This document shows positions 8,097 to 44,168 of a stretch of DNA of 64,000 nt, in pieces; positions within the stretch are counted from its first letter, which is position 1; the number at the start of each line of letters is the position of its first letter. The notes below the pieces were generated by a model, which saw only the letters and a program-made list of their open reading frames with translations, ran no database searches and was not told where the DNA came from. Source of the stretch: Escherichia phage vB_EcoM_PHB13; sequence record MK573636; one strand, 5' to 3'. Position numbers and translations under genes: made by a program.

Positions 8097-8097
8097 T

Positions 8098-9018: not shown

Positions 9019-9306
9019 ATGTTAGTACACAATGCAATCGCACACATGGTTTATTCTCGATTTGGGCGCAGGGAAGAAATCAATATTACCGACGCAGATT
9101 TAGATCTGATGCAAGTAGAAGGTCAGACATATCTGAAAAATAACGGCGTGAATATCGGTAAAGCGCGTGTGCGTGAATTGTTGGTTGAATATATTCTCTC
9201 TGAATTTGGCATTAGTGCTTTCGGTGTGAAAGAGCTTGCACCTAAGCGCGAAATTTCTGATAAAATGATCAAGAAATGCCAGAAAGCACGACGTAAGGGT
9301 TTCTAA
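9019..9306 (+). CDS. hypothetical protein
   Basis: ORF track 9001..9306; ATG after SD GAGGAATATATT. Confidence 0.45.
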   Translation: MLVHNAIAHMVYSRFGRREEINITDADLDLMQVEGQTYLKNNGVNIGKARVRELLVEYILSEFGISAFGVKELAPKREISDKMIKKCQKARRKGF

Positions 9307-10775
9307 TGAAGATTGAAACATTAATCGCATTGCCAGCGGCGGGGAAAACTGATGCTATACTTTCCCACGTCCTAGAGACAAAAGAAAAAGCGGTTATTGC
9401 TTCGCCATCTCGTGTTTTAAGTGAACAATCTTACAATAAGTTTAAAAGAATGGGCGGTCGTGCTGTCTTGATCGATAGCACAAGACTAAGAAGCCTTAAG
9501 ACAGTGCAAGCGTCGATAATGCAATCAGTTAAAGACGGTGCTGATGTGATATTCATTACACATACAGCGTTATCTAATATGGAACGTTCAAAAATGTTTG
9601 GTGAATATGCTCTTTACATTGATGAAGTTCCTCAACTGGTTGAATTTAATGAGTATCCGTTTAAGTCTAATCTTGAACTTATCACGAAGCATTGCGAACC
9701 AATCGCCGACGAATCGGAATGCCTACAGAACTTAGTTCTAAAAGACTCTGAGAAGGCCGCTATCAAAGAAAAGATAGAAAGTGCAAAGGATGGTACTGAT
9801 ATGATCGATTCTTCTCTTAGAGGGCTTTATGAGGCGTTATTAGAGAAGAAAATCAACGTTATGGTAAAACATAACGAAGGACACCGGAAGAATGGGTCGA
9901 AAATTGTTTTCTTGAACGATAACAAACACGGTACGTGGGGAGACTTTAAAAAGGTTACGATAGCATGTGCAAATCTCTTTGATACATATAGCGGGAAGTA
10001 TCTACGATACTATGCAAATTGCGATTTTGTTCCGAGTGCGCTAGAATCCAGACTATATTTCAAAGAGTATAAAAATACAGATAGAGTTAATATCATCCTT
10101 ATGACGGACTCCGAACGATGGTCGCGTCACCAGTCAGAAACAAACAATACCTTTGAACGTCTTGTTGATATGGTTAAAAATGAATGTGGTGATGACTTCA
10201 TTTATACCGTGAATCGGGACCGTGAAGCGTGCACAAATGGTATTGGCGAGCGGATACCTTACGGATCTTATGGTCTTAACTCTTACATTCATCATAAAAA
10301 TGTTGCTGTGATGTTCAGCTTTAACCCTCAACGATGGGAGATTGATATTTTAAAAGGTCTTGCTAATAGTTGTGATCTCCCGACAAATGAGTTTTTGAAA
10401 GCGCGTCATGTGTCTGATTATCTGGAACCAGCATTTCAATTATGTTTGCGTTGTAACCTGAGAGACAACGAGAGCAAGGAGAATGTTAATCTATATGTTC
10501 CTGATTGGGCGTTGGTAGATTATCTAAAAACGTTTCTACCTAATGCCAATGTAATAACAGACAGAATGATTCCGCTAGAATGTGGTGAGCGTAAAGGGCG
10601 AAAATCATTTAAAAAGATGTTCGATTTTAACGAGCAAGAGAATGCAAGATTTAACGGATTTAAGTACCGCATGAAGAAAAAGGGAAAAACTCTTGATCCG
10701 TCTGACGGTGAATCAGTAGAGATGGTTAGAGTGTGGATAACTAAGCAAAGAAAGTATAATGGCAATGGGGAATAG
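9306..10775 (+). CDS. P-loop NTPase of unknown function (Walker A ALPAAGKT, Walker B LYIDEV)
   Basis: ORF track 489 aa; Walker motifs read directly; AGA/AGG-rich codon usage unlike neighbours. Confidence 0.55.
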   Translation: MKIETLIALPAAGKTDAILSHVLETKEKAVIASPSRVLSEQSYNKFKRMGGRAVLIDSTRLRSLKTVQASIMQSVKDGADVIFITHTALSNMERSKMFGEYALYIDEVPQLVEFNEYPFKSNLELITKHCEPIADESECLQNLVLKDSEKAAIKEKIESAKDGTDMIDSSLRGLYEALLEKKINVMVKHNEGHRKNGSKIVFLNDNKHGTWGDFKKVTIACANLFDTYSGKYLRYYANCDFVPSALESRLYFKEYKNTDRVNIILMTDSERWSRHQSETNNTFERLVDMVKNECGDDFIYTVNRDREACTNGIGERIPYGSYGLNSYIHHKNVAVMFSFNPQRWEIDILKGLANSCDLPTNEFLKARHVSDYLEPAFQLCLRCNLRDNESKENVNLYVPDWALVDYLKTFLPNANVITDRMIPLECGERKGRKSFKKMFDFNEQENARFNGFKYRMKKKGKTLDPSDGESVEMVRVWITKQRKYNGNGE

Positions 10776-10815: not shown

Positions 10816-11349
10816 GTGTCTGATTATGTAAACAATAAAGAGCTTTACGAAGAAATTTGCCGTTGGAAACAACAAATTGCAGCAGAAGGTCGGCAAGTTC
10901 CAATGAGCGATCAAATCGGCCTAGCAATTATGCAAATCTCTAAAAATCTATCACGTCGTTTTAACTTTTCTGGTTATAGTCAAACATGGCGCGAAGAAAT
11001 GATCGACGACGGAATCGAAGCGGCGGTCAAGGGTTTGATTAATTTTGACGAGACAAAGTATAAAAATCCTCATGCTTACATCACGCAAGCGTGCTTTAAT
11101 GCTTTTGTACAGCGCATTAAAAAAGAGAGAACAGCGACAGCCGCAAAATACAAATATTTTGTGCATCATGTATATGACGAACGCGACGCTGATATGTGCC
11201 AGATTGCTGATGAGGCATTCATACAGGACATTTACGATAAAATCAACAACTACGAGGAATCGGTCAATAAACCGAAAGCGCCAAAGGTTGAAGATGTATT
11301 GACTGAGGAATTGCCTAGCCTGGACCAATTTTATGAGATTGAAAATTAA
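10816..11349 (+). CDS. 55: late-transcription sigma factor gp55
   Basis: strong similarity to T4 gp55 ([22 protein letters not shown]; C-terminal clamp-binding tail [10 protein letters not shown]); GTG start. Confidence 0.85.
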
Positions 11350-11566
11350 CATTTCCCGTTTGCTGGAAGAAGCAGAGTTTGAAACTGACCTCGTGCCGTA
11401 TTTCGCCAAATTATTTTTGAGAGATTGCGGCGTTCCGGTGATTATCGATCCGTGCAATATCAAATCACCGGATCTTGAGGTCTTGACGGGTACAATCTCA
11501 CATAGCTATAATGTATCAGAAGATGAATTTTCTTTAATAATTGATTATATCCCAGAGGTAAAATAA
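11333..11566 (+). CDS. hypothetical protein
   Basis: ORF track, 77 aa. Confidence 0.35.
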
Positions 11567-11567
11567 C

Positions 11568-11855
11568 ATGACTTACGATGAACAGCATGACAAGATTGCA
11601 GTGAATGAAGTAGACAAAGTACAAGCAGAACTAGAGGCTAAAGCCGCTAAGAAAGCGGAAAAGATCTTGCGTAAGAACTCGCGAGAGATTGCACGACTTA
11701 AGCGGTGGGCTGAACAAGCTATCATCGATGATAACCGTGATGCGTATATCTACGCTATCGGAAAGTTACGTGATATCTACAAACAGCCACACACGCCAGA
11801 ACTGCTTTCTGCTATGTGGATTAGTACACGGCAAACGGTATTAAGTATGCTGTAA
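11568..11855 (+). CDS. hypothetical protein
   Basis: ORF track, 95 aa. Confidence 0.4.
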   Translation: MTYDEQHDKIAVNEVDKVQAELEAKAAKKAEKILRKNSREIARLKRWAEQAIIDDNRDAYIYAIGKLRDIYKQPHTPELLSAMWISTRQTVLSML

Positions 11856-11945
11856 TGGCTTTATAAGGGAGACTCCGAAAGGGGTTTCCCTTTTTATTTT
11901 TCTGTGATATAGTGAGAGCATCGAAAACGAAGAGAGGAAGAGACT

Positions 11946-12971
11946 ATGAAAATTTTGCTTTTAGGTGATCTGCATACTGGCATCGGTGGCGATGATCCGT
12001 GGGTGCATGAGTATATTTTAGACACGATCAAGAAAGCTGTTGATTATTCTAAAGAAAATGGTATTAAGATATGGATTCAAACAGGGGATTGGTTTGATTG
12101 TCGCAAGGCTATCACACATGAAACCATGAAATTTAACCGTACTAAGGTCATCCCATTACTGGAAGAGGCAGGAATCACCTGTTATATCACGGTCGGGAAT
12201 CATGATATGTTTAAACGCAATAAGATCCAGCCTAACGCGCCGCGTGAAGTGTTAAGCCAGTATGATTGCATTAAGGTTATTGATAAGCCAGAAACAGTTA
12301 CCTTTGATGGGGTATCATTCGACCTGTTCCCGTGGTTTTGTGATGACAATAAATCCGAGGTTTTAGAGTTTATTCAAAATTCATTCAGCGAATATTGTGT
12401 AGGCCATTGGGAATTGTCCGGCTACTATTTCTATAAAGGGTTAAAATCCGAAGGTTATAGCGCGGACTTCCTCAAGAAATACCGTGAAGTGTTTTCCGGT
12501 CACTTTCATACTATCAGTGATGGCGGTAACGTAACGTATATTGGCACACCATACACACTAACGGCTGGCGACGAAAATGATCCGCGTGGTTTTTGGGTAT
12601 TCGATACAGATACACACAAAAAGGAGTTTATCCAGAATGACAAAACTTATCATGTGCGTATCACTTACCCGTCAGATGATAAAATCGATGTAGAACGCTT
12701 TAAAGGGCTTAGTGTGCGCCTAATTGCAACGGTCGCTGATAATGGGTTAACTAAGTTAGAAAGCGCGTTAGAAGCCGTTGTGCATAAGCTAAAAGTTGTC
12801 CATAAGCTGGAGAGTAGCGCATCACAGGAAACAGGTGTTATTGAAGTTAAAAGCACTATTCAGATGGTCTATGAATATCTGGAAGAACAAAACCTAGAAC
12901 CGGAAGAACTTGCGGCGGTCAAGCGTATTTCTGATGAACTTTTAGCCGAAGTAAATAACGCAAAAAGTTAG
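11946..12971 (+). CDS. 47: recombination endonuclease subunit gp47 (Mre11-like)
   Basis: phosphoesterase motifs LLLGDLHTG, GDWFD, GNHD; synteny 55-47-46. Confidence 0.85.
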   Translation: MKILLLGDLHTGIGGDDPWVHEYILDTIKKAVDYSKENGIKIWIQTGDWFDCRKAITHETMKFNRTKVIPLLEEAGITCYITVGNHDMFKRNKIQPNAPREVLSQYDCIKVIDKPETVTFDGVSFDLFPWFCDDNKSEVLEFIQNSFSEYCVGHWELSGYYFYKGLKSEGYSADFLKKYREVFSGHFHTISDGGNVTYIGTPYTLTAGDENDPRGFWVFDTDTHKKEFIQNDKTYHVRITYPSDDKIDVERFKGLSVRLIATVADNGLTKLESALEAVVHKLKVVHKLESSASQETGVIEVKSTIQMVYEYLEEQNLEPEELAAVKRISDELLAEVNNAKS

Positions 12972-17099: not shown

Positions 17100-17786
17100 A
17101 TGAAACTAACTAAAGAAACTGTTGCGATCCTGAAAAACTTTTCCGCTATTAACCCAGGTATCATCCTGAAAAAAGGAAACGTCCTGATCACCAAAAACAT
17201 GACAAACGTTGTATATGGTGAAGCGACTCTGAATCAAGAACTGGAACACGAAATCGGGATCTATGATCTTAACTCTTTCCTGGGCATTCTGAATCTGGTG
17301 GGCGATGAAGCAGATATTACGGTTGATAACCGCACCGGAAACATTCGTGTGTCTAATGATCGTCTGAAAATTAATTATCCTGGTGCTAGTGCTGCTGCTA
17401 TCGTATCACCGAAAGGCCGAGTTACTCCACCTGCAAGCGATGTAGATTACGAACTGAGCAACGACGATCTGAAACAGCTTATGAAAATGAGCAATCAGCT
17501 TAAAGTGGATCGCCTTGAATTTCTTCCGATTGATGGTCGTCTGATGATCAAAGGTTGGGAAGAGATTGACAAAAATAATCCTAATGAGATGTTTTGTCTT
17601 GATATGGGCGAATATACCGGAACCGCAGACTTCCATTTCTTTATTCGTAAAGATAACATGAAACTGGTTGCTACTGACTTCGGCGATTACAAACTTAGCT
17701 TCACTCGCCGTAAGGCTGTATGGCTGGCAAGTGAAACCGTATCTTATATGATCGCGTGTGACCTTGACTCAAGCTACACCGACTAA
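17100..17786 (+). CDS. 45: sliding clamp gp45
   Basis: N-terminus MKLTKETVAILKNFSAINPGIILKKG resembles T4 gp45. Confidence 0.9.
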   Translation: MKLTKETVAILKNFSAINPGIILKKGNVLITKNMTNVVYGEATLNQELEHEIGIYDLNSFLGILNLVGDEADITVDNRTGNIRVSNDRLKINYPGASAAAIVSPKGRVTPPASDVDYELSNDDLKQLMKMSNQLKVDRLEFLPIDGRLMIKGWEEIDKNNPNEMFCLDMGEYTGTADFHFFIRKDNMKLVATDFGDYKLSFTRRKAVWLASETVSYMIACDLDSSYTD

Positions 17787-17793
17787 TATAATA

Positions 17794-17822
17794 TTTGTGG
17801 GGAGTGTAAATACTCCCCGTTT
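17794..17822 (+). terminator. hairpin GGGGAGT-gtaaat-ACTCCCC plus T-run after gene 45 (terminator or promoter stem-loop)
   Basis: read directly. Confidence 0.4.
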
Positions 17823-17851
17823 TAATGATGTAATTTGTGAGAGGTGATTAT

Positions 17852-19850: not shown

Positions 19851-22529
19851 ATGTATTTTCTGTCATGTGAGCGAGTAGGTGATAAGATCTACGAGCGTTA
19901 TATTGATGATGCTGGACAAGAACAAGAGCGTTACGTTGAATATACGCCAACTTTATTTCATCATGCCGCGCCTGGTATGGTTACGAATTATAAAGATATC
20001 TATGGCAAGCCTTGCATTGCTAAAAAATTCCCCTCTATGAACGAGGCCAACAAATGGCGTAAAAAGATGGGGGAGATGGGGCAAGAGGCACTAGGGATGG
20101 ATGATTTTATCATCTCCTATCTGTCTGATACGTATAAAGGCGAGATTCGATATGACCGAAATAAAATCCGTGTAGCATGGGTTGATATCGAGGTCACTGC
20201 CCCAGAATTTCCTAAACCAGAAGAAGCGAAATATCCTATCGATGCAATTACGCATTATGATTCCGTACATGATCGTTTCTTTGTATTTGATTTGAAAGGA
20301 AAAAACGGTGAATCTTGGGAAGCAAGCAAGTCTATTCTTCGCCCAGATATTGTAGAACGTGTTGTTTATAACGTCTATGACACAGAAGATGAATTGCTGT
20401 TAGAATACATCCGATTCTTTGAGGAAAACCGACCCGTTGGTTTCACTGGCTGGAACACAGAAACATTCGATATTCCATATATCATTAAACGTATCAGTAA
20501 TAAGTTCGGAAGTAGAACCGCTAACCGTCTAAGCCCGTGCGGTAAGATTAAATCCCGAATCTCACAGGATGATTTTGGCAACGAGCGTGAAGCATTTACG
20601 ATCATGGGGATCGAAAGCCTTGATTATATTGACCTGTACAAGAAATTTAGCTTTACGACTCAACCAACATATGCATTAGATTATGTTGCTGAATACGAGA
20701 CAGGAATCGGTAAGGTTGATTATGATGGTCCGTTAAAGAAATTGCGTGATGACAACCATCAACTTTACATCGATTATAACATCGGCGACGTTGATCGTGT
20801 GCTGGCGATTGATAAAAAGCGTGGATTTATCGATCTGGTGTATAGCCTATGTTTCTATGCAAAGATTAAATTTAACCATGTTTATAACCCGATGAAAGTA
20901 TGGGATGCTATTATCTTCGGATCTCTGAAAGCTGAGGGTAAAGTAGTACCGGAAAATAAGATACAACCTAAGCAGACGTATCCAGGCGCATTTGTAAAAG
21001 AACCTGTGCCAAATGCTTACCGTTGGATGATGAGCTTTGACTTAACAAGTTTGTACCCATCTATTATTCGACAGGTTAATATTTCGCCTGAAACAATCGC
21101 TGGATCTTTTGATGCTGCACCGATGCACGAGTATATCAATAAAACTGCACCACGTCCTAGTGATGAGTATTCTTGCTCGCCTAACGGATGGATGTATCGA
21201 AAAGATATTCATGGTATCGTACCGATTGAGATTAAAAAGGTATTCGATCAGCGTAAGCAGTACAAAAACATGATGTTGGCATGTGATCGCAATGCTGAAC
21301 TATGTAAAGCGATTCTACACGATGAAAATCATGTTTATGGGGGAACCATTAGCTATAGCGTTGAAGTGCGTCACGACTTCGATGAAGCGTTTAAATCGAT
21401 GCTTTCTGAATTAAGTAAAGACGCCTTAGAGAAATTGCTGGAAGAATGTAAAGACGAGTCGATCTTGTGCAATACAAACCAGCTTTCTCGAAAAGTTTTG
21501 ATCAACTCCCTTTATGGTGCGTTGGGGAATCCTAAATTCCGTTTTTATGATCTCCGTAACGCTAGTGCGATCACACTGTTCGGTCAGCTTGCAATTCAGT
21601 GGATTGAGCGTAAGATTAACGAATACTTAAACGAGCTTTGCGGAACAACCGATTTTGCATATGTTCGTTATTGTGATACTGACTCCGTTTATGTGCTGGT
21701 TAACAATGTTGTTGATAAGGTTGGCGGGGAAGACCGTTTCGACGATACCGAAAAACTTGTTGACTTCCTTGATAATTTCGGTAAACATCGAATGGAACCT
21801 ATTATCGACAAGGGATATCGCGAGTTATGCGAGTACATGAACAACTATGAGCACTTGATGTTTATGGACCGCGAGGCAATTGCTGGTCCTCCGTTGAAAT
21901 CTGCGGGTATCGGTGGATTCTGGACTGGTAAAAAGCGTTATGCTCTTAATGTTTGGGATATGGAAGGAACGCGCTTTGCTGAACCTAAGCTAAAAATCAT
22001 GGGCTTGGAAACGCAACGTAGCTCCACCCCGAAAGCATGTCAGAAATCACTGAAAGAATGTATTCGCCGTATGTTGCAGGAAGGTGAAGAGTCATTGCAG
22101 GAATACTACGGTATTTTTGAGCAAGAATTTAGAAAACTTGACTATCTTGATGTTGCTGCGGTATCATCTGCAAACAACCTACAGAAATACAGCGATTCAA
22201 ACGGGTATCCGATTAAGGGTTGTCCGTATGCGGTTAAGAGTGTATTGTGTTATAATCGTAATGCTCGAAAATTCGGACTAGATCCGATTCGTGAAGGCGA
22301 GAAGGTTATGATTGTACCGCTGAAAGATCGAAATCCGTTTGGAGAAATCTGTTTTGGTTGGTTGTCCGGTACTCGTATTCCTCCAGAGATTGAAAGCGAG
22401 GTGTTAAAGTGGTTAGACTGGTCTTTGTTGTTTAATAAGACTTTCGTCAAACCACTGGAGAACATTACAACGGCTGCAAAGCTGCAATATGAAAAAGTGG
22501 CATCTCTTACAGACCTGTTTGACATTTAA
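19851..22529 (+). CDS. 43: DNA polymerase gp43 (family B)
   Basis: exo motif VDIEV, SLYPSIIRQVNISPET, polymerase motif CDTDSVYV; T4 gp43-like; start at ATG 19851. Confidence 0.95.
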   Translation: MYFLSCERVGDKIYERYIDDAGQEQERYVEYTPTLFHHAAPGMVTNYKDIYGKPCIAKKFPSMNEANKWRKKMGEMGQEALGMDDFIISYLSDTYKGEIRYDRNKIRVAWVDIEVTAPEFPKPEEAKYPIDAITHYDSVHDRFFVFDLKGKNGESWEASKSILRPDIVERVVYNVYDTEDELLLEYIRFFEENRPVGFTGWNTETFDIPYIIKRISNKFGSRTANRLSPCGKIKSRISQDDFGNEREAFTIMGIESLDYIDLYKKFSFTTQPTYALDYVAEYETGIGKVDYDGPLKKLRDDNHQLYIDYNIGDVDRVLAIDKKRGFIDLVYSLCFYAKIKFNHVYNPMKVWDAIIFGSLKAEGKVVPENKIQPKQTYPGAFVKEPVPNAYRWMMSFDLTSLYPSIIRQVNISPETIAGSFDAAPMHEYINKTAPRPSDEYSCSPNGWMYRKDIHGIVPIEIKKVFDQRKQYKNMMLACDRNAELCKAILHDENHVYGGTISYSVEVRHDFDEAFKSMLSELSKDALEKLLEECKDESILCNTNQLSRKVLINSLYGALGNPKFRFYDLRNASAITLFGQLAIQWIERKINEYLNELCGTTDFAYVRYCDTDSVYVLVNNVVDKVGGEDRFDDTEKLVDFLDNFGKHRMEPIIDKGYRELCEYMNNYEHLMFMDREAIAGPPLKSAGIGGFWTGKKRYALNVWDMEGTRFAEPKLKIMGLETQRSSTPKACQKSLKECIRRMLQEGEESLQEYYGIFEQEFRKLDYLDVAAVSSANNLQKYSDSNGYPIKGCPYAVKSVLCYNRNARKFGLDPIREGEKVMIVPLKDRNPFGEICFGWLSGTRIPPEIESEVLKWLDWSLLFNKTFVKPLENITTAAKLQYEKVASLTDLFDI

Positions 22530-22572
22530 GATAAAGTGTGTATAATGGCGGGTGTTGGGTGACGATACCCGC
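22519..22572 (+). promoter_or_regulatory. promoter TTGACA-16bp-TATAAT followed by hairpin GGCGGGT...ACCCGCC
   Basis: read directly; overlaps gene 43 stop. Confidence 0.4.
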
Positions 22573-22590
22573 CAATGTGAGAAATATATT

Positions 22591-22779
22591 ATGAGAGACA
22601 TTGAAAAGATTAAACGTGAACGTGAGGAAGGCATAGAGCATTTCAAGAAAGTTCACGGAAATCACAGTAACGAAGTATTTGTGACGATCAATGTTGATGC
22701 GATGAAAAAGTTAATTCAAGAGCACTACAAAGATCGAATAACAATGAAGCAATTAAAGTATTACGGATTAACTGAATAG
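22591..22779 (+). CDS. hypothetical small protein
   Basis: in-frame ATG within track ORF 22552..22779 after SD GAGAAATATATT. Confidence 0.35.
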   Translation: MRDIEKIKREREEGIEHFKKVHGNHSNEVFVTINVDAMKKLIQEHYKDRITMKQLKYYGLTE

Positions 22780-22790
22780 AGGTATTAATA

Positions 22791-23861
22791 ATGTCTGTAC
22801 TGGAAAAACTGAAAAAGAACTCTACCCTGAAAACTACTGCGGTACTGTCTAAATCCAGCTTCTTTAACGAAAAAACAAATACTCGCACTAAGATCCCGAT
22901 GCTGAATATTGCGTTTTCCGGTGATCTTAAAAAAGGCTTTCAATCTGGTCTGATTTTCTTTGCTGGTCCGTCTAAGCACTTTAAATCAAACATGGGATTA
23001 ACCTGTGTTAGTGCATACATGAAACAGAATCCTGATGCGGCTTGTTTGTTCTTTGATTCTGAGTTCGGTATTACTCCCGCTTATCTGGAATCTATGGGCG
23101 TAGATCCTGATCGCGTAGTGCATGTTCCAATCAAGAACATCGAAGAACTTAAATTTGAAATCATGAACCAGCTTGAGCAAATTACCCGTGAAGATAAAGT
23201 GATCATCTTTATTGACTCAATTGGTAACTTAGCAAGTAAAAAAGAAGTTGAAGACGCGATTAATGAGAAATCCGCACAGGATATGACGCGAGCGAAAGCA
23301 CTTAAAGGCTTGTTCCGTATGGTTACGCCGTATCTGACTATGAATGATATCCCGTGCATCGCTATTAACCACACTTACGAAACGCAAGAAATGTTTAGTA
23401 AGACCGTTATGTCCGGCGGTACGGGCGCGATGTACAGCGCGAATGAAGTTTTTATTATCGGTCGTCGCCAGCAGAAAGAAGGTACAGAGTTGACTGGTTA
23501 TGAGTTTATATTGAAGGCCGATAAGTCACGAACTGTTAAAGAAGGGTCGAAGTTCCCGATTGATGTAACGTTTAGCGGTGGTATTAACCCATATTCCGGT
23601 TTACTGGATCTCGCAATCGAGCTTGGGTGGGTCGTCAGCCCGTCGAAAGGTTGGTATTCTCGTTCCATTCTGAATACTGAAACAGGAGAAATGGAAACAG
23701 AAGAACGCAAGTTCCGTGCTAAAGAAACTAATAGTGTTGATTTTTGGAGACCGCTTCTGACTAATGATAAGTTTAACGAAGCGATTAACGAACACTATCA
23801 GCTGGGTCAAGTTATAAGCGATGAGGCAGTTGACAAAGAAGTCGAAGATATGTTAGCATAA
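22791..23861 (+). CDS. uvsX: recombinase UvsX (RecA-like)
   Basis: strong similarity to T4 UvsX (GPSKHFKSN, IAINHTYETQEMFSKTVM). Confidence 0.9.
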   Translation: MSVLEKLKKNSTLKTTAVLSKSSFFNEKTNTRTKIPMLNIAFSGDLKKGFQSGLIFFAGPSKHFKSNMGLTCVSAYMKQNPDAACLFFDSEFGITPAYLESMGVDPDRVVHVPIKNIEELKFEIMNQLEQITREDKVIIFIDSIGNLASKKEVEDAINEKSAQDMTRAKALKGLFRMVTPYLTMNDIPCIAINHTYETQEMFSKTVMSGGTGAMYSANEVFIIGRRQQKEGTELTGYEFILKADKSRTVKEGSKFPIDVTFSGGINPYSGLLDLAIELGWVVSPSKGWYSRSILNTETGEMETEERKFRAKETNSVDFWRPLLTNDKFNEAINEHYQLGQVISDEAVDKEVEDMLA

Positions 23862-23871
23862 CAATGGTAGT

Positions 23872-23896
23872 AAAGGGGCTACGTGCCCCTTTTTCA
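23872..23896 (+). terminator. intrinsic terminator AGGGGC-tacgt-GCCCCT plus T5
   Basis: read directly. Confidence 0.5.
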
Positions 23897-23916
23897 TATC
23901 TAGAGAGGATTATATT

Positions 23917-24234
23917 ATGGATAAGAAACCAACAAGTTTAGAAGAAGCACACAGCTTGATTCAAGAAGCAATGAAGACAGTTATCCAGGAACTGATAATT
24001 GTTGATGAAGAGGGAGAACATCATATTGTCTATATTCATAATGTTGAATACGATCCAGACACTAAAGGTATTGTGGTCGACTACTCCACGCCGTCAGATC
24101 GTGATGTGGTATATCCACACGTCATTAAGGCGTTAACCGCGCAGATCAAAGAAGCAGAAGAAAAGTTGAAAAAAGAAACTTTCTGGTATAAACTCAAGAC
24201 CTTTGTTATGCGTGTAGTTGGGGGCTATGTATGA
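23917..24234 (+). CDS. hypothetical protein (occupies the T4 gene 40 position)
   Basis: ORF track; position only. Confidence 0.35.
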   Translation: MDKKPTSLEEAHSLIQEAMKTVIQELIIVDEEGEHHIVYIHNVEYDPDTKGIVVDYSTPSDRDVVYPHVIKALTAQIKEAEEKLKKETFWYKLKTFVMRVVGGYV

Positions 24235-25643
24235 TTAAAACTATCTTTTCACAGTTGATTTACAATGGCGCATTCTTTACGAATGTATGGCCTCACCTTA
24301 AAGCGGACTACTTCACCGAAGACGAAGAAAAACTGATTTATAAGCTGATTAAAAAGCACGTAGACGAATATTCCAATATTCCTACGCCAACAGCATTACA
24401 GATTGCTTTAGACAAGGAGAGAGGCAATCAGACAACATATGAAGGGGCTAAAACTCTTCTTGATTCGCTTGAGAATACACCGGAAGACCTTGATTGGTTA
24501 ATGAAGGAAACCGAAAAATTTATTCGTGACCGTGCCATGTATAATGCAATGTCACGGGCGCTAGAGATTCAGGCGAACGCACAACTACCAAAAGAGAAAC
24601 AGAATAAGAAATTGCCGAGTGAGGGTGCTATTCCTGAGATCATGCAGGAAGCACTATCCATTACGTTTGATTCTGATGTAGGTCATGACTGGTTTAATGA
24701 CTTTGAAAAACGATTCTTGCTATATCAGACTAAGGCGAATAAGATCCCGTTTAAGCTGCCGATGTTGAATAAAATCACGAAAGGAGGTGCGGAAAGAAAA
24801 ACGCTAAATGTGTTGCTTGCTGGTGTAAACGTTGGTAAATCGCTTGGCTTGTGTTCTCTTGCTGCGGATTATATGGAATGTGGTTATGATGTATTGTATA
24901 TATCAATGGAGATGGCAGAGCATGTCGTAGCAAAACGTATCGACGCAAACTTGCTTGACATTACATTAGATGAATTGGATAATGGTAATGTTTCTTTTGC
25001 GGAATATTCCGCACGCATGAAGCGTGTTAAGAATAAGAAGATCGGAGATCGTCCGGTTGGAAAATTGATGATCAAGCAGTATCCGACTGGTGGCGCAAAC
25101 TCCAATCACTTTGAGGCGTTAATGAATGAATTGCGACTCAAGAAACAGTTTAAACCTGATGTTGTGATTGTTGACTATCTGGGGATTTGCGCATCGTCTC
25201 GCTTGCGTGTATACTCTGAAAATAGTTACACACTAGTTAAGGCGATTGCGGAAGAACTGCGAGGATTTTTTGTTAAGTGGGATGTTGTTGGTTGGACTGC
25301 GGCACAGACTACCCGCGCGGGTTGGGATGCTTCCGACCTTAACATGAGTGATACCGCTGAATCAGCAGGTCTTCCGGCTACTGCCGACTTTATGTTGGGT
25401 GTTATCGAAACCGAAGACCTGGCTAAAATGGGCGTCCAACTCATGAAGCAGATCAAGTCTCGTTACGGTGATAAGAACTATTATTCACGGTTTAACGTTG
25501 GTGTGAAGAAAGGCAATCAGCGTTGGTATGAAGTACCAAACCAGATCGCAGATCAGGAGAATACACAAGTTAAACCACAAAGCGCACAGCAAGCCGAGAA
25601 ACGCGAAAAACTCGACGAGCTAGCAAATACCATGACTTTCTAA
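24231..25643 (+). CDS. 41: replicative DNA helicase gp41 (DnaB-like)
   Basis: Walker A AGVNVGKS, RecA-like core; synteny. Confidence 0.85.
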   Translation: MIKTIFSQLIYNGAFFTNVWPHLKADYFTEDEEKLIYKLIKKHVDEYSNIPTPTALQIALDKERGNQTTYEGAKTLLDSLENTPEDLDWLMKETEKFIRDRAMYNAMSRALEIQANAQLPKEKQNKKLPSEGAIPEIMQEALSITFDSDVGHDWFNDFEKRFLLYQTKANKIPFKLPMLNKITKGGAERKTLNVLLAGVNVGKSLGLCSLAADYMECGYDVLYISMEMAEHVVAKRIDANLLDITLDELDNGNVSFAEYSARMKRVKNKKIGDRPVGKLMIKQYPTGGANSNHFEALMNELRLKKQFKPDVVIVDYLGICASSRLRVYSENSYTLVKAIAEELRGFFVKWDVVGWTAAQTTRAGWDASDLNMSDTAESAGLPATADFMLGVIETEDLAKMGVQLMKQIKSRYGDKNYYSRFNVGVKKGNQRWYEVPNQIADQENTQVKPQSAQQAEKREKLDELANTMTF

Positions 25644-25649
25644 TAAAAT

Positions 25650-25666
25650 GCGCCCTACGGGGCGCT
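25650..25666 (+). other. GC-rich hairpin GCGCCC-tac-GGGGCGC downstream of gene 41 (no T-run)
   Basis: read directly. Confidence 0.3.
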
Positions 25667-25693
25667 GGTGAATGATTTGATAGGAGATATAAC

Positions 25694-26329
25694 ATGATCG
25701 CTAATGCTTTACCGCCAAAATGGATCGTAAGTCGCTTTTATACTCTCAAGGAAGGTAACGCACCTGATGGTCGTCCGATCCGAGATCTGTTTCTGGAGAT
25801 GACTACCGCCGAAGCACAATTTTATAATGATCTGACAGACGATAAGCCGTTTCTTGTAAATTCTGTGGATCTTGATGGTAATGTTACGTCAATTATCGCA
25901 CATGGTGGGGAAGTGAAAAATATTACTTCTCTGCGTGAACACGGTTGGGAAATTGCTTGTGTATTTCCTGCGGATGTACGCGGATTCTTTGATGAGGTAT
26001 CTGATATTAAAGTAAATGCACTAGAACCATATGACGAGATCCCACCACTGAAAGAAGAAAAAGAGTTGACACCGGAAGATGTAGATAGTACACTACACCC
26101 AGACCTATTTAAGAAGATTAGCGGTTTATGGACTGTTACCCTGCATCCAACCGCATTAGGTCTAGAATTGGGTATGCCAACTTATTCTGATATTGATAAT
26201 TGGACTAAGCATATTGATAAAGATGTTGAAAAACAGCGAAATAATGCTAAAATGCAACTTAAAGAGAAACGAAAAGATCTTGAACGACAACTGAAAGAAA
26301 CCAAACATTTGCTTTCTACGTTCGCTTGA
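25694..26329 (+). CDS. hypothetical protein, likely distant member of the repeat-domain family (VDLDGNV...ADVRGFFDEV)
   Basis: ORF track; motif similarity to the 6263..8583 cluster. Confidence 0.45.
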   Translation: MIANALPPKWIVSRFYTLKEGNAPDGRPIRDLFLEMTTAEAQFYNDLTDDKPFLVNSVDLDGNVTSIIAHGGEVKNITSLREHGWEIACVFPADVRGFFDEVSDIKVNALEPYDEIPPLKEEKELTPEDVDSTLHPDLFKKISGLWTVTLHPTALGLELGMPTYSDIDNWTKHIDKDVEKQRNNAKMQLKEKRKDLERQLKETKHLLSTFA

Positions 26330-26359
26330 TCTATAATGAAACTCTAAGGAGACTATATT

Positions 26360-26734
26360 ATGAAAAATATGATTACGCCGGAAGATGTAGCATTTAAAAC
26401 CGCAAATAACGGAGACATTCTTATTTTTATCGACGGTAAACATGCTGGTATGGTTGAACCGGAAGGACGCTGGGGAGTCGCCGAACTTTATGATGTGGCT
26501 GGTGTAGATCCGAAAACTGCAATTGTTTTTCTGGCGGATAAAGATCAAATGCGTCGAAAAATTGCTGCGCTCTATAATGAAGCATTGTATTTCTACGAAC
26601 CGTTTCATCGTATTAAAACGATCTCCCGCGTGACTCGAAAAGATGTTAATGCTTGTGTTATCAAGATTGTAGAGAATCAGGATAAACTGACGAAAGACCA
26701 GATTGTTGACTTACTGAAAGAGATTATTCTATGA
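26360..26734 (+). CDS. hypothetical protein
   Basis: ORF track; SD GGAGACTATATT. Confidence 0.45.
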   Translation: MKNMITPEDVAFKTANNGDILIFIDGKHAGMVEPEGRWGVAELYDVAGVDPKTAIVFLADKDQMRRKIAALYNEALYFYEPFHRIKTISRVTRKDVNACVIKIVENQDKLTKDQIVDLLKEIIL

Positions 26735-26906
26735 TTGGCTTTAAACAGTTTGTTGAAGAAAATAAACTCAAAGAAGATATGACCGCTGGCGATGCTGGCG
26801 GCAATCCTGAGAAGATCGCAGCAGGTGAAACGAGCGGATCTATTACCAATCGTGGACCTAGTGTAGCGGGTAAAGAAAAACGCAAAAAGGAGAAAGACGG
26901 TGCTTA
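26730..26906 (+). CDS. hypothetical small protein (58 aa, Gly/Lys-rich)
   Basis: not in track; ATGA overlap with upstream stop. Confidence 0.2.
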
Positions 26907-26914
26907 GTATCATC

Positions 26915-27058
26915 ATGTTTATCGTTGGCTTGCTGTCCGCTATTATCGGTGTTGTTGTTTTCGGATTATCTGGACACAAAACAAAAACAGAAAAGTTATC
27001 CGAGATCACAATGTATGTTGGTGTAGTTCTCATTCTGTTGTCGGTGGCGCTTAAATGA
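26915..27058 (+). CDS. hypothetical small membrane peptide (2 predicted TM helices)
   Basis: not in track; hydrophobic sequence read directly. Confidence 0.2.
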   Translation: MFIVGLLSAIIGVVVFGLSGHKTKTEKLSEITMYVGVVLILLSVALK

Positions 27059-27258
27059 TTACGATGAAATGTCTTAAAAGCACATATGCACTTTTTGAAG
27101 CCGGAAAAGAATATGAATTTACAGAACTTGACCCGGTAGGACGTTTTCGTGTATTCTCTTACACATCGCCAGATGGTAGTGTCTACAAATTTGGCTTAGA
27201 TGAAAACGGAGAGAATGAAAATGAAAGTGTAGGAACTTTCATGAAATTTGAGCTATAA
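27055..27258 (+). CDS. hypothetical protein
   Basis: ORF track, 67 aa. Confidence 0.35.
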   Translation: MITMKCLKSTYALFEAGKEYEFTELDPVGRFRVFSYTSPDGSVYKFGLDENGENENESVGTFMKFEL

Positions 27259-27267
27259 GAGGTTATT

Positions 27268-28296
27268 ATGATTTACTACGCAGATTATGAAATAGCGGAA
27301 AAAGCCATATACGGCGAACGAAATTTTAAACGGTTGCATACTAGCTCATTTACGCTGGTCTGTAGTTGTCCGATCTGCGGTGACTCAAAGAAAAATCATA
27401 CTCAAGCGCGATTCCGTATCTATACCTATAAGGATAGTTTGCGTTGCGGCTGTTTCAACTGTAACTACAATCAGCCGTTAGGTGAATTTCTCAAACAGTA
27501 TAAGCCGGACCTATTCAGGGAATGGCTTATGGAACGACGGAAGGAACAAGGCGACCACAAGAACACCACGTTCAAGCCACTGAAAAAGGTAGAAAAGCCG
27601 GAGATTAAGAAAGTGCAAACATTGCCTTTCTGCGAGAGATTAGATACTCTTCCGGCTAATCATCCTATAATAAAGTATGTCAGTGATCGTTGCATCCCTC
27701 ACGATAAATGGGATCTTCTGTATTTCACGAGAGAATGGCAAAAGGTAGCAAATCACATTAAGGCTGATACTTTCAAGAATCCACAACCTGAACCGCGTTT
27801 AGTGATTCCTATCTTTAACCGCGAGAACAAGATAGAATCCATTCAGGGGCGAGCATTGAGAAAGGATTACGGAAAGACCAAATATATGACGATTAAAACT
27901 CACGAGTTAGCGAGTAAGGTCTATGGTCTTGAACGCGCCGATCCGAGTAAACCAGTGTATTTCTTAGAAGGTCCGATCGATTCATTGTTTATTGATAACG
28001 GGTGTGCAATTACTGGCGGTACGTTGGGATTAGATGAAATCCCTTTCCCAGACCAGCGAGTGTTTGTACTTGATGCGGAACCACGGTCTGCCGATACAAT
28101 GCACCGACTGGAAAAGTTTATCAACGCAGGGGAAAAGATTGTATTATGGGATCGTTGCCCGTGGCATTCTAAAGACGTTAACGCCATGATTCAGGATGAG
28201 GGTGCTACACGCGACCAGATCATGGAATATATCAAAGAGAACACCGTACAAGGTCTGATGGCTAAAATGCGGTTTATGAAATATTGTAAATTTTAA
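27268..28296 (+). CDS. 61: DNA primase gp61
   Basis: zinc ribbon CPICGDSK...CFNCNY and Toprim EGPIDSLF; T4 gp61-like. Confidence 0.85.
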   Translation: MIYYADYEIAEKAIYGERNFKRLHTSSFTLVCSCPICGDSKKNHTQARFRIYTYKDSLRCGCFNCNYNQPLGEFLKQYKPDLFREWLMERRKEQGDHKNTTFKPLKKVEKPEIKKVQTLPFCERLDTLPANHPIIKYVSDRCIPHDKWDLLYFTREWQKVANHIKADTFKNPQPEPRLVIPIFNRENKIESIQGRALRKDYGKTKYMTIKTHELASKVYGLERADPSKPVYFLEGPIDSLFIDNGCAITGGTLGLDEIPFPDQRVFVLDAEPRSADTMHRLEKFINAGEKIVLWDRCPWHSKDVNAMIQDEGATRDQIMEYIKENTVQGLMAKMRFMKYCKF

Positions 28297-28304
28297 TTAA
28301 TGAG

Positions 28305-28829
28305 GTGAATATGTCAGAATTTAATTCTTGTGCTGGTCTGGTTAACGAAAAAGATATTAACGCGGCTATCGCCGCATATCATCACGCTATTGCAGAAGGT
28401 AAAGATCCGTTTCAGGTGATGCTCGAAATGCAAACTGGTTTGCAGGTTGCATTATCCGAAAAATTTGATTGGGTCCCAAATCCAACTAAGCTAGAGACTT
28501 GCGGTGAAATGCTGGATTGGATGCAACGGATGGATGACGCTATCGCAGACGAAACACGAGAGCTTTACACATCGCTGGGTGGAATGTCCAATGGTAAAGA
28601 TGCAAGTGCAATCTGGAAAATGTGGAAAAAGAACCACGGAGAAGCGCGAGCGCGTAAATTCTCTGAACTGTCACCGGAAGATCAGCTTGAAGTGAAATTT
28701 GAATTTGTGGACGCGATCCACTTCATTCTGTCAAAGATGATCCCGCTGGGTATTGACGCTCAAGAACTCTTTATTCTGTACTATCTGAAAAATGCTGAAA
28801 ACTTCGCCCGTCAAGAACGCGGCTACTAA
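28305..28829 (+). CDS. 56: dCTP/dUTP pyrophosphatase-like protein (gp56-like, all-alpha NTP pyrophosphohydrolase)
   Basis: 174 aa, position between 61 and dda; assignment by size and position. Confidence 0.55.
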   Translation: MNMSEFNSCAGLVNEKDINAAIAAYHHAIAEGKDPFQVMLEMQTGLQVALSEKFDWVPNPTKLETCGEMLDWMQRMDDAIADETRELYTSLGGMSNGKDASAIWKMWKKNHGEARARKFSELSPEDQLEVKFEFVDAIHFILSKMIPLGIDAQELFILYYLKNAENFARQERGY

Positions 28830-28836
28830 AAATTAG

Positions 28837-28898
28837 TTGACACTACTCTATCATGGTTTTATTATGCCTCCCGTCGAAAGATTGGAGGCTTTTTTATT
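28837..28898 (+). promoter_or_regulatory. promoter TTGACA-17bp-TATTAT followed by hairpin GCCTCC...GGAGGC that contains the SD, then U-run and AUG
   Basis: read directly. Confidence 0.4.
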
Positions 28899-29402
28899 AT
28901 GCAATTTACACCAGAAGAACTTAACATCATTGATGAGGTGATGAACTCTAAAGAAAATATCGATATGTCGATCCTTAATGGATTGATTGAAAAGACTGAG
29001 CGGTTAGTGCATCATGAAGCCTTGTATCGCGGTGTGAGCAAAAGAGAAGGTCGTAAGCTGGATACCTTAATTGTAGGCGATTCTTTCGTTGTAGAGCGTC
29101 CTATGAGCTTTACGCCACTGCAATCAACAGCAGAGGACTTTGCAACCGATGTTTATGCAACAGGAAAGATTATTGCAATAAAACCTACCAAGCCTTGCAT
29201 GAATTATTACGAACATGCTATTGACCGAGTGGTGTCTAAAGAGTATGACAATCCGACTACTCGACTGTCTTTGTATGCTATGTTGGCAGATGAGCGCGAG
29301 TGCATATACAAGACAGGGACGACCATGATCCTTGACGAGATCGAGGAAGTTTACGCGTGTAATGGCGATCTGATAGAGATTTACAAATTTTCTTTAATTT
29401 AA
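28899..29402 (+). CDS. hypothetical protein, possible Mod-like mono-ADP-ribosyltransferase (candidate R / S-x-T / E-x-E motifs: YRG, SFT, ERE)
   Basis: ORF track; motif spacing only partly canonical; in the T4 modA/modB position. Confidence 0.3.
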   Translation: MQFTPEELNIIDEVMNSKENIDMSILNGLIEKTERLVHHEALYRGVSKREGRKLDTLIVGDSFVVERPMSFTPLQSTAEDFATDVYATGKIIAIKPTKPCMNYYEHAIDRVVSKEYDNPTTRLSLYAMLADERECIYKTGTTMILDEIEEVYACNGDLIEIYKFSLI

Positions 29403-41308: not shown

Positions 41309-42673
41309 ATGGATAAAATTAGTCAAATTGTAAACACATTTACTTACCGCAGCCTTGAAAGCATTGTACATAATGAAGCTAAGGAATATGCGATCTATTC
41401 TGCCGAGGAACGCGGGATTCCTCAATTAGTGGATGGGCTTAAACCAGTGCAACGCTTTGTTATGGAGTGCGCACTTCAAAAGAGTAAAGGCGACCGTAAG
41501 AAATTCCGTAAGATGGCAGATATTGGATCTGGTGTTGCTGAGTTGGGTTATCACCACGGGGAAACTAATGCCGTAGAAGCCGGATCACTCATGGCGAATA
41601 CATGGAGCAATAATACTCCACTGCTTGACGGTCAAGGTAACTTCGGATCGCGTTTAGTCCAGAAAGCAGGTGCGGCACGTTATATCTTTGCTCGTGTGCA
41701 TGAAAACTTCTTTAAAATCTATAAAGATATGAATTGCGCACCTAAGCACGAAGATCTGGAACACATCCCGCCAGCATTCTACTTGCCAGTTGTGCCAATG
41801 GTATTGGCTAATGGTATTAGTGGTATTGCTACAGGGTATAAAACTGACATTTTACCGCATTCACTGGAAAGCCTTATTGAATGCACAGAGCTAGCACTTG
41901 CCGGAAAACTGGATAAAGAACCTAGTGTTCAATTCCCAAAATTCACGGGTAAAGTTATCCCGCGAGATGATCGCGATGGTGTGATTCTTGAGGGTACATA
42001 TGAACTAAACGGCAAGACTAAACTGACAATATCAGAAGTTCCTTATAAGTTCGACCGTGAAGAATATGTGGCGGTACTGGATGCGCTGGAAGAAAAAGAT
42101 CTGATTGTATCGTATAATGACCGTTGCTCTAAGGACGGATTCAGATTTGAAGTAACACTGAAACGCGATTATTTCAAAAGCGAAGATGAATCCGCTCGAC
42201 ATGAGCAAATCATGAAGGATTTTAAACTAACGCAGTTAGTAGCCCAGAATATCGTGGTAGTTAATGAACGTGGCTTAGTTGAAGTATTCGAGAAAGCGAG
42301 CGATCTGATCCGTCGATTCGTCGAAATCCGATTAGGGTATGTCGATAAACGCATTGAATTGATGCAAGCGGAAACGCTGGAAGCATACAATTATGCAATG
42401 GCTAAAGCCAAATTTATCGACCTTGTAATTAAGGGCGAAATCGAGCTACAGGGAAAGAAAAAGGCCGAGGTAATGCAATCCATCAATGGACATGAAAAAC
42501 TGCGTCCATACGCCGATAAGCTAGTTTCTATGCCATTGTATAGCGTTACTCAAGAAGAGTATGATCGACTGGTCAAAGATGCCGAGAAACATCATAGTGA
42601 ATATGAGTATTGGACAAAGACGACCGCAATGAAGGAATATAAGAAAGATCTTAAAGAACTTAAGAAGGGTTGA
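41309..42673 (+). CDS. 52: DNA topoisomerase II medium subunit gp52 (GyrA-like)
   Basis: strong similarity to T4 gp52 (GLKPVQRFV, LLDGQGNFGSR, RYIFARV); start at ATG after SD GAGGTGA. Confidence 0.9.
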   Translation: MDKISQIVNTFTYRSLESIVHNEAKEYAIYSAEERGIPQLVDGLKPVQRFVMECALQKSKGDRKKFRKMADIGSGVAELGYHHGETNAVEAGSLMANTWSNNTPLLDGQGNFGSRLVQKAGAARYIFARVHENFFKIYKDMNCAPKHEDLEHIPPAFYLPVVPMVLANGISGIATGYKTDILPHSLESLIECTELALAGKLDKEPSVQFPKFTGKVIPRDDRDGVILEGTYELNGKTKLTISEVPYKFDREEYVAVLDALEEKDLIVSYNDRCSKDGFRFEVTLKRDYFKSEDESARHEQIMKDFKLTQLVAQNIVVVNERGLVEVFEKASDLIRRFVEIRLGYVDKRIELMQAETLEAYNYAMAKAKFIDLVIKGEIELQGKKKAEVMQSINGHEKLRPYADKLVSMPLYSVTQEEYDRLVKDAEKHHSEYEYWTKTTAMKEYKKDLKELKKG

Positions 42674-42873
42674 TTATGAAAGAATATCCAGAAGGCGGTT
42701 ATATTGCATTTCTGTACAACAATAAAAAGATTGTGCCAATTGTCGTTGAAACACTGGAAGAATCCAACCGGATCACCAGTGAATCTCTGAGCAAATTAGC
42801 AGAGATGACAAACACGCCAGAACACAGAGCAAAGATCGACAGCTTGATGAAAGAATTATCAGAGAGGAAATAA
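42670..42873 (+). CDS. hypothetical protein
   Basis: ORF track. Confidence 0.35.
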   Translation: MIMKEYPEGGYIAFLYNNKKIVPIVVETLEESNRITSESLSKLAEMTNTPEHRAKIDSLMKELSERK

Positions 42874-42876
42874 ATT

Positions 42877-43272
42877 ATGACTGAACGACGCATCACTTCA
42901 AATGGTTTGGGTACTCATCATGCATGGATGGTTGACCCAGACAAAAATCCTTATAAACTTTACGATACAACGATTAAACCGTGGAATAATGGCGTATGGA
43001 AAACACCACACACAACAGCACCTATTATGACTGATCCGAAACCGATTAGCCCGATGGCGGAACCAGTACAGATTAAGCCGTTACCTTACCAGATAACAAC
43101 GAATAGCATCGCCAACAAACAAGAAAATGATATTGATATGATCTACGAGATGATTAAACTTTGGCGTGATGTTTATCTGGGTGTTCTCTGCAACACAGAT
43201 AAAAGTGCACATGCGGCAGCGGTACTGGCATCTCATGCAGTAGACGAAGCCAAAAAGAAATTTAGTAAGTAA
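42877..43272 (+). CDS. hypothetical protein
   Basis: ORF track, 131 aa. Confidence 0.4.
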   Translation: MTERRITSNGLGTHHAWMVDPDKNPYKLYDTTIKPWNNGVWKTPHTTAPIMTDPKPISPMAEPVQIKPLPYQITTNSIANKQENDIDMIYEMIKLWRDVYLGVLCNTDKSAHAAAVLASHAVDEAKKKFSK

Positions 43273-43281
43273 CTGATTATT

Positions 43282-43310
43282 AAGCCGATCCTTGTGGTCG
43301 GCTTTTTTAT
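43282..43310 (+). terminator. intrinsic terminator AAGCCGATCC-ttgt-GGTCGGCTT plus T-run
   Basis: read directly; same hairpin inverted near 53208. Confidence 0.55.
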
Positions 43311-43322
43311 TTTAAAAAGTTG

Positions 43323-43351
43323 TTGACTTACAGAATCCAACATTGCATAAT
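43323..43351 (+). promoter_or_regulatory. sigma70-like promoter TTGACT-17bp-CATAAT
   Basis: read directly. Confidence 0.4.
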
Positions 43352-43382
43352 ACACCCATACCAAACAAAAGGAGAATCAAAG

Positions 43383-43655
43383 ATGTGCAACGAAAACAGC
43401 AAAGTGTTGGCAATTGCAGATAAAGTAGGTTACTGGAAATGCTGGGATGATATGGAGAAATTAGGCGGTCGCTATCTCGATAACTTAGAGTTGCATTATT
43501 GCCAAGCGCGTAATGCAGAAGTTGCGGGAGTAGCAATCGAAGATATTCCGTCTAAAGTCTTCGGATTCTCTAAAGATGATACTCTAGAGTATGTTTTTAA
43601 GGCTGTAATGGATCAAGCATGGGAAGACGCAGAGACACGCGCTCTTGATTGGTGA
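43383..43655 (+). CDS. hypothetical protein
   Basis: in-frame ATG within track ORF 43320..43655 after SD AGGAGAATCA. Confidence 0.4.
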   Translation: MCNENSKVLAIADKVGYWKCWDDMEKLGGRYLDNLELHYCQARNAEVAGVAIEDIPSKVFGFSKDDTLEYVFKAVMDQAWEDAETRALDW

Positions 43656-43659
43656 TAAT

Positions 43660-43878: not shown

Positions 43879-43918
43879 TATTATACTCCCATACCGAAAC
43901 GAACTGGAGGAAATAAAA

Positions 43919-44161: not shown

Positions 44162-44168
44162 AAACCAG

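Follow-up and report, generated by a model that had tools for sequence, protein, structure and literature searches.

We analysed a stretch of 64,000 nucleotides (nt) from Escherichia phage vB_EcoM_PHB13 (sequence record MK573636; hereafter the window) for the T4 genes encoding dCMP hydroxymethylase (gene 42), the DNA alpha- and beta-glucosyltransferases (a-gt and b-gt), MotA and AsiA. The plus strand follows a T4-like order: nrdD, nrdG, nrdH, 55, 47, 46, rpbA, 45, 44, 62, regA, 43, uvsX, 40, 41, 61, 56, a modB-like gene, srd, dda, dexA, 39, rIIA, rIIB and 52. Gene 52 is followed by a block of small open reading frames (ORFs), beyond which t and the tail-fibre genes 37 to 34 are encoded on the minus strand. 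The T4-type core of replication and late-transcription genes is present (43, 44, 45, 62, 41, 61, uvsX, 46, 47, 55, 39, 52, 32 and 59), and none of the five genes sought was found at the three positions where T4 carries them. The borders and contents of these positions are as follows (E, expectation value; gp, gene product; aa, amino acids).

10816-11349, plus strand: gene 55, late sigma factor, left border of the a-gt position; 61% identity to T4 gp55 (E 3e-68), in agreement with the RB49 annotation.
11333-11566, plus strand: homologue of T4 a-gt.5 (tblastn E 2e-7; DUF5491 E 3.7e-4, below the curated cut-off).
11568-11855, plus strand: homologue of T4 a-gt.4 (DUF2654; tblastn E 3e-12 to 2e-16, PF10849 E 1.3e-22).
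11946-12971, plus strand: gene 47, right border; 56% identity to T4 gp47 (E 1.5e-116).
19851-22529, plus strand: gene 43, DNA polymerase, left border of the gene 42 and b-gt position; 55% identity to T4 gp43 (E 0), start as in the RB49 annotation.
22519-22574, plus strand: early promoter of the PeSL type (TTGACA, 16 nt, TATAAT; 12 of 12 consensus positions) with an inverted repeat; RB49 is annotated with the same early promoter.
22591-22779, plus strand: 62-aa ORF, the sole gene between 43 and uvsX (phrog_12120 E 2.5e-41, no Pfam match), equivalent to RB49p025.
22791-23861, plus strand: uvsX, recombinase, right border; 63% identity to T4 UvsX (E 1e-150).
41309-42673, plus strand: gene 52, topoisomerase II medium subunit, left border of the motA and asiA position; 51% identity to T4 gp52 (E 1e-145).
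42674-47588, plus strand: hyperplastic region of 14 small ORFs at the T4 motA/asiA site, without a MotA or AsiA match in Pfam or PHROGs.
45817-46185, plus strand, within this region: ORF resembling T4 arn.4 (E 3.5e-6), which in T4 sits between motA and asiA.
47589-48245, minus strand: t, holin, right border, from the annotation of the homologous gene in RB49 and W115.

Two of the three positions are much shorter than in T4. Between 43 and uvsX, T4 has 3635 base pairs (bp) with imm.1, imm, 42, b-gt and segA, whereas the window has 261 bp, taken up by the stem-loop promoter and the 62-aa ORF. Between 55 and 47, the 3152 bp of T4 (a-gt.5, a-gt.4, a-gt.3, a-gt.2, mobB, a-gt and 47.1) correspond to 596 bp with two ORFs in the window; a-gt, mobB, a-gt.2, a-gt.3 and 47.1 are missing there, and the best match to T4 a-gt anywhere in the window has an E of 3.0. 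The stretch from 52 to t is longer than in T4, 4915 bp with 14 small ORFs versus 2998 bp with motA.1, motA, arn.4 to arn, asiA.1 and asiA. An initial annotation of the window had described the three positions as holding only small unrelated ORFs; small they are, but the a-gt.5, a-gt.4 and arn.4-like ORFs are related to T4 genes. It had also set the whole observation at 22530-29402, which holds for the first position only, the others lying at 11350-11945 and 42674-47588. The rest of 22530-29402 consists mostly of clear T4 homologues (uvsX, 40, 41, 61.1, 61, 56 and the modB-like gene).

We searched the window with T4 gp42, b-gt, a-gt, MotA, AsiA, Alc, Arn, Imm, DenB and Ndd, taken from the T4 reference record, by tblastn (word size 2, low-complexity filtering off, E cut-off 10) and by phmmer (--max) against six-frame ORFs. 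We scanned 50 of the window's ORFs against Pfam and 30 of those 50 against PHROGs, every ORF at the three positions being included. By tblastn and phmmer, gp42, beta-gt, alpha-gt, MotA and AsiA gave only chance fragments in the window (E 0.53 to 4.3), as did Alc, Arn, Imm, DenB and Ndd. None of PF00303, PF09198, PF11440, PF09114, PF09158 and PF09010 matched any of the 50 scanned ORFs, and the PHROGs scans of 30 ORFs returned no relevant family. The Pfam models were present and sensitive, because the same library scored the T4 proteins themselves at 3e-16 (gp42) to 3e-260 (alpha-gt). The positive controls were recovered in the window at 49-63% identity: gp43 (E 0), UvsX (1e-150), gp41 (0), gp61 (2e-110), gp56 (2.5e-50), gp55 (3e-68), gp47 (1.5e-116) and gp52 (1e-145). 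With null searches between flanking genes so readily found, the initial claim that gene 42, glucosyltransferase and motA/asiA genes are absent from their T4-syntenic positions was borne out.

The initial annotation had allowed that the genes might lie elsewhere in the genome, of which the window (about 39% of some 164 kilobases (kb)) leaves roughly 100 kb outside. We therefore searched likewise the complete genomes of RB49 (NC_005066) and W115 (ON286974), both at 96-98% identity to the window. By tblastn and phmmer, neither genome contains a homologue of any of the ten T4 proteins, so 42, a-gt, b-gt, motA and asiA do not seem to lie elsewhere in the genome. For gene 42, the dCMP hydroxymethylase of thymidylate-synthase fold whose base-specificity residue is Asp, the best match in the window has an E of 3.9. 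The DNA glucosyltransferases (PF11440, PF09198) gave E values of at least 0.4 in the window, RB49 and W115 by tblastn and phmmer. For motA (PF09114 and PF09158) the best values were 0.53 in the window and 0.06-0.8 in the RB49 and W115 genomes, all from short fragments; for asiA (PF09010) they were 4.3 in the window and at least 0.5 in the two genomes, with no Pfam match. Alc and denB, the accessories that act against cytosine DNA, and arn, which encodes the anti-McrBC protein, had no match in the window, RB49 or W115. The same searches did find DenA (2.6e-41), Cd (3e-59) and gp56 in RB49 and W115, denA lying outside the window.

The only match to gp42 in RB49 and W115, a weak one (E 0.009-0.015), is td, and we rejected the 410-aa RB49 td as a hidden hydroxymethylase. 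It is a ThyA, a real dTMP synthase: its LPFNVASY motif contains the dUMP-type Asn at the site of the gp42 Asp, and the thymidylate synthase model (PF00303) matches it at 1e-84. The RB49 td (47870-49102 of the RB49 sequence segment used) contains an in-frame insertion of about 135 aa that splits the ThyA domain into two Pfam stretches; this may represent an unusual insertion or else an intervening sequence not recognised as such.

By megablast of three segments that make up nearly the whole window, about 58-62 complete Krischvirus coliphage genomes match at 95-98% nucleotide identity. Among them, FL15, kaaroe, W115, RB49, Phi1 and GEC-3S show 95.4-97.7% identity at 94-100% coverage across the three segments. 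The window is the reverse complement of RB49 from about 149.5 to 164 kb plus 1 to 38.3 kb, and its ORFs pair one for one with the RB49 annotation, as expected of a member of Krischvirus. RB49 and Phi1, at about 95.8-97.4% identity over three compared stretches and with the same gene order, have the identical three gaps relative to T4 and the same PeSL promoters, and hold RB49p025, dc1, dc2, a-gt.4, a-gt.5, gp56, modB and srd in common with the window. T4 (Tequatrovirus) resembles the window in its collinear replication and recombination core (49-63% protein identity), in its TATAAATA late promoters, and in gp56 and the small ORFs 40, 61.1, a-gt.4, a-gt.5 and arn.4. It differs in carrying 42, a-gt, b-gt, imm, motA, asiA, arn, ndd and denB, and also alc, which is missing from the window's close relatives; the early promoters of the window, unlike those of T4, combine a perfect TTGACA -35 element with stem-loops, and the Mot-box is not enriched in the window.

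Promoter counts separated the two phages. On the early strand of window positions 1-47560, compared with dinucleotide shuffles, the Mot-box pattern TGCTTNA-N11-13-TANNNT occurred once against 1.0±1.0 expected, whereas the syntenic 28 kb of T4 held 7 against 1.2±1.0. The sigma-70 pattern TTGACA-N16-18-TANNNT behaved in the opposite way, with 23 occurrences against 1.2 expected in the window (about 20-fold) and none against 0.8 in the T4 stretch. The initial annotation's suggestion of altered middle-mode regulation is supported by the Mot-box count at chance and the lack of a motA or asiA match, and by published work on RB49: Nolan et al. (2006), citing Desplats et al. (2002), report that searches of that phage yielded no motA orthologue and no consensus for middle promoters, and the phages they give as having AsiA are RB69, 44RR, Aeh1 and KVP40, with RB49 not listed (PMC1524935). 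The promoter pattern of the window would fit a two-class, early plus late, programme without MotA. RB49 itself is reportedly served by only two temporal classes of promoter, as Desplats and co-workers are said to have found in 2002.

The stem-loop promoters named in the initial annotation correspond to the published PeSL cassettes (PMC2839356). At 649, 1884, 22519-22574, 44169 and 44447, near-consensus sigma-70 promoters adjoin a stem-loop in intergenic sequence beside small ORFs and are predicted to be PeSLs. Those at 649, 1884, 44169 and 44447 carry GGGAGTA..TACTCCC stem-loops; that at 22546-22574 has an 8-bp stem, TGGCGGGT..ACCCGCCA, and a 13-nt loop directly 3' of the -10 element. We detected no difference from the PeSLs of Arbiol et al. 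(2010), which likewise join a strong sigma-70 consensus promoter to a G/C-rich stem-loop (GGGAGTA..TACTCCC or GGCGGGT..ACCCGCC) and lie in intergenic positions beside ORFans. PeSLs have promoter and terminator activity, and their mutual recombination shuffles ORFan cassettes in hyperplastic regions (Arbiol et al. 2010, PMC2839356). With strict settings (perfect stems of 6 bp or more, loops of up to 10 nt and no fewer than 4 G-C pairs), a hairpin detector picked out only 5 of the 32 perfect-TTGACA promoters, compared with 5% of random windows; by this criterion many promoters of the window are plain, without a stem-loop. The detector undercounts PeSLs and provides no census of them, because it missed the stem-loop at 22546-22574 with its 13-nt loop. 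A generic terminator scan was barely above shuffles (13 versus 8.7 and 8 versus 5.8).

Late promoters are also recognizable. Canonical TATAAATA sites lie 5' of the tail-fibre genes 34 and 36. Upstream of gene 44 (17780-17830, plus strand), an early TATAAT is followed by the stem-loop GGGGAGT-GTAAAT-ACTCCCC, whose loop carries TGTAAATA, annotated as a late promoter in RB49; the stretch at about 17790-17825 is a putative overlapping early/late promoter built into a hairpin.

The initial annotation had taken the window to come from a phage with unmodified cytosine. This is supported by the synthase and glucosyltransferase genes not being found, and by the unmodified DNA of the relatives RB49 and TB34 (PMC4041780, PMC13390438). 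RB49 lacks the hydroxymethylase and beta-glucosyltransferase, and HpaII and NheI cut its DNA but not that of T4 (Yaung et al. 2014, PMC4041780); by high-performance liquid chromatography with mass spectrometry, TB34 DNA contains canonical nucleosides only (PMC13390438). At the syntenic positions, Krischvirus genomes are described as devoid of synthase and glucosyltransferase genes (PMC13390438, 2026), and a 2021 survey found that, of the gene set linked to hydroxymethylcytosine (hmC), the RB49 group keeps only the DenA and dCTPase homologues (PMC8056088).

Taken together, we put at about 0.9 the joint probability that the window is part of a Krischvirus genome, an RB49-like 'pseudo-T-even' member of Straboviridae, and that this phage lacks the hmC and MotA/AsiA systems. 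Several points weigh against this interpretation. Beyond the window, the predicted absence of the genes rests on its relatives. Functional analogues without homology, encoded among the many uncharacterised ORFs, are beyond the reach of sequence methods. A gp56-family gene is kept in the window and denA in the relatives, and both act against cytosine DNA in T4. Finally, the Krischvirus SAP, 99.96% identical to TB34, was reported to contain 5-hydroxymethyldeoxycytidine (5-hmdC) and alpha-gentiobiosyl-mdC and to be sensitive to BrxU, with no pathway identified (PMC13390438).

The gene 56 homologue of the dCTPase family (28311-28829) is kept although the window has no gene 42, and the relatives keep denA, cd and gene 1 as well. 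Speculatively, gp56, with Cd and Td in the relatives, might plausibly channel dCTP and dUTP towards dTMP for a genome of 40% G+C. As for SAP, its differences from TB34 (Table S5 of PMC13390438) are mostly 1-nt insertions or deletions in the genes for DNA polymerase, sliding clamp, UvsX and topoisomerase, and the remainder are mostly C-to-T changes in proline codons. Since the insertions and deletions would frameshift essential genes, we infer that they are assembly or sequencing errors rather than a genetic switch. Of the two SAP/TB34 single-nucleotide differences that map into the window, one lies in a Dcm (CCWGG) site and one does not. SAP and TB34 are probably genetically the same, their difference in modification having no genetic basis in the phage genome, and a mixed stock would be the simplest reading of the modification in SAP.

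These observations bear on the alternatives. That cytosines are modified through a pathway that has no sequence relationship with gp42 or the glucosyltransferases and is encoded by uncharacterised ORFs would account for SAP, whose modified bases and BrxU sensitivity come without candidate genes (PMC13390438); it would also suit the retention of gp56, DenA, gp1 and Cd homologues in the genus and the many uncharacterised ORFs of the window, six goF/frd.2-like paralogues among them. We nevertheless regard it as very unlikely: enzymes sensitive to C-methylation cut RB49 DNA, TB34 is unmodified despite its near identity to SAP, the SAP/TB34 differences look like errors, a mixed stock would fit the SAP findings, and none of the 50 scanned ORFs showed a glycosyltransferase or ThyA-like domain. 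For the specific case of an SAP-like, hmC-type replacement of cytosine in the phage of the window, with the gp56 dCTPase and the gp1 kinase as surviving parts of a pathway of uncharacterised ORFs, the chance is slimmer still. Relocation of 42, a-gt, b-gt, motA and asiA to the part of the genome outside the window, conceivable given the size of that part and the mosaic nature of the hyperplastic regions of Krischvirus, has next to no probability, as the complete RB49 and W115 genomes hold no homologue, the RB49 td is a true ThyA and published surveys of the genus agree on the absence.

On the side of transcription, an analogue of MotA/AsiA encoded by one of the small early ORFs, for instance in the 52-t region or as the Srd-like protein, might drive cryptic middle promoters built around another box. 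The phage retains Srd-like, ModB-like and RpbA genes, and partial or replaced systems do exist, because Aeh1 and KVP40 keep AsiA without a recognisable MotA (PMC1524935). Such an analogue is highly improbable, however, since no ORF of the 50 matched an AsiA or MotA profile at E up to 0.1, phmmer found none in the RB49 and W115 genomes, the Mot-box motif is not enriched, and the replication genes carry early plus late promoters instead.

The window thus keeps a T4-type core for replication, recombination and late transcription, arranged as in T4, and lacks two T-even accessory systems: that of hmC, comprising gene 42, both glucosyltransferases (alpha and beta) and the accessories Alc, DenB, Arn and Imm, and that of sigma appropriation by MotA/AsiA with its Mot-box middle promoters. 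The DNA of the phage would be made with ordinary cytosine, as published work on close relatives suggests. To judge from published relatives, host sigma-70 holoenzyme in its unmodified form would transcribe the prereplicative genes from many near-consensus promoters, and stem-loop attenuators would insulate several of these, forming PeSL cassettes. Replication genes would also be reached from gp55-type late promoters, such as the early/late promoter of gene 44, and the switch to late transcription dependent on gp55, gp33 and gp45 would occur without a MotA/AsiA stage. The three T4-syntenic positions would be junctions between conserved blocks where phages exchange cassettes of small genes, an exchange that Arbiol et al. 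attribute to PeSL-mediated recombination (PMC2839356).

The remaining features downstream of uvsX and in the 52-t region are listed below.

23917-24234, plus strand: gene 40 homologue, head vertex assembly chaperone (PF11113 E 6e-25, tblastn E 9e-8).
24231-25643, plus strand: gene 41, helicase; 57% identity to T4 gp41 (E 0).
25694-27258, plus strand: five small genes (dc2, dc1, a 61.1 homologue and two small ORFs; matches to uncharacterised PHROGs, with dc1 and dc2 annotated in RB49), at the site of T4 dmd, 61.4, sp, 61.2 and 61.1.
26731-26907, plus strand: the 61.1 homologue (E 8e-13).
27268-28296, plus strand: gene 61, primase; 51% identity to T4 gp61 (E 2e-110).
28311-28829, plus strand: gene 56 homologue (dCTPase/dUTPase family); 49% identity to T4 gp56 over the full length (E 2.5e-50), dUTPase_2 E 3e-5.
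28837-28865, plus strand: consensus promoter 5' of the modB-like gene (11 of 12 matching).
28899-29402, plus strand: ModB-like ADP-ribosyltransferase (phrog_832 E 1e-20); modB is annotated here in RB49.
About 43856, 44169 and 44447, plus strand: PeSL promoters in the 52-t block, from sequence inspection.
44509-45309, plus strand: 266-aa ORF whose N-terminal part matches the LprI domain of lysozyme inhibitors (PF07007 E 9e-7, above the cut-off).
46539-46871 and 46980-47309, plus strand: two adjacent paralogues of 110 and 109 aa (phrog_9457 E 3e-43 and 4e-56).
47306-47554, plus strand: Tad2-like ORF of 82 aa adjoining the holin gene (PF11195 E 3.1e-6, 28.1 bits against a cut-off of 25; phrog_1048 E 5e-19).

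The 52-t region varies within the genus: of 62 related genomes, only 32 span 80% or more of it. GEC-3S and E26 are closest to the window in cassette content there, and RB49 and Phi1 differ from it. The small ORF at 43919-44161 (plus strand), which has no PHROG family, is flanked on both sides by similar promoter/stem-loop units (TTGACG..ACTCCCATACC; stretch 43856-44205) and therefore looks like a PeSL-bounded mobile cassette. The PF11195 match of the ORF at 47306-47554 is to a Tad2-like domain of Thoeris anti-defence. At the 55-47 position, RB49 differs from the window in having an HNH endonuclease gene between a-gt.4 and 47 (26380-26934 of its segment); the window (11856-11945) and W115 lack this gene there, and in W115 an HNH gene adjoins gene 39 instead. 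This pattern is one of presence/absence differences of homing endonucleases within the genus. Just upstream, between 55.2 and 55, a 489-aa ORF (9306-10775, plus strand) has a DEAD-box helicase domain (PF00270 E 3e-6); it is hypothetical in the RB49 annotation, and T4 has no gene of such size there. Around nrdD-nrdH lie six goF/frd.2-like paralogues (67-645, 709-1887, 6254-6790, 6780-7259, 7272-8096 and 8074-8583, plus strand) that match phrog_5347, phrog_8944 and phrog_622 in various combinations and in which no Pfam domain was found. Two of them, 709-1887 and 7272-8096, were considered as hidden transferases or synthases and rejected, being goF/frd.2-like paralogues in which no enzyme domain was detected.

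The absence of the listed genes and its interpretation restate published properties of the genus that are already known: that RB49-type phages lack the hmC genes and MotA/AsiA has been on record since 2002-2006, and the result has little weight as a discovery. The SAP report leaves a small probability that Krischvirus modifies cytosine by another route. The practical value of the result lies in classification, as it marks the window as that of a T4-like phage with cytosine DNA. Restriction enzymes that are blocked by the modified DNA of T4 would be expected to act on such a phage; RB49 itself is targeted by Cas9, and TB34, an unmodified Krischvirus, escapes the modification-dependent enzyme BrxU.

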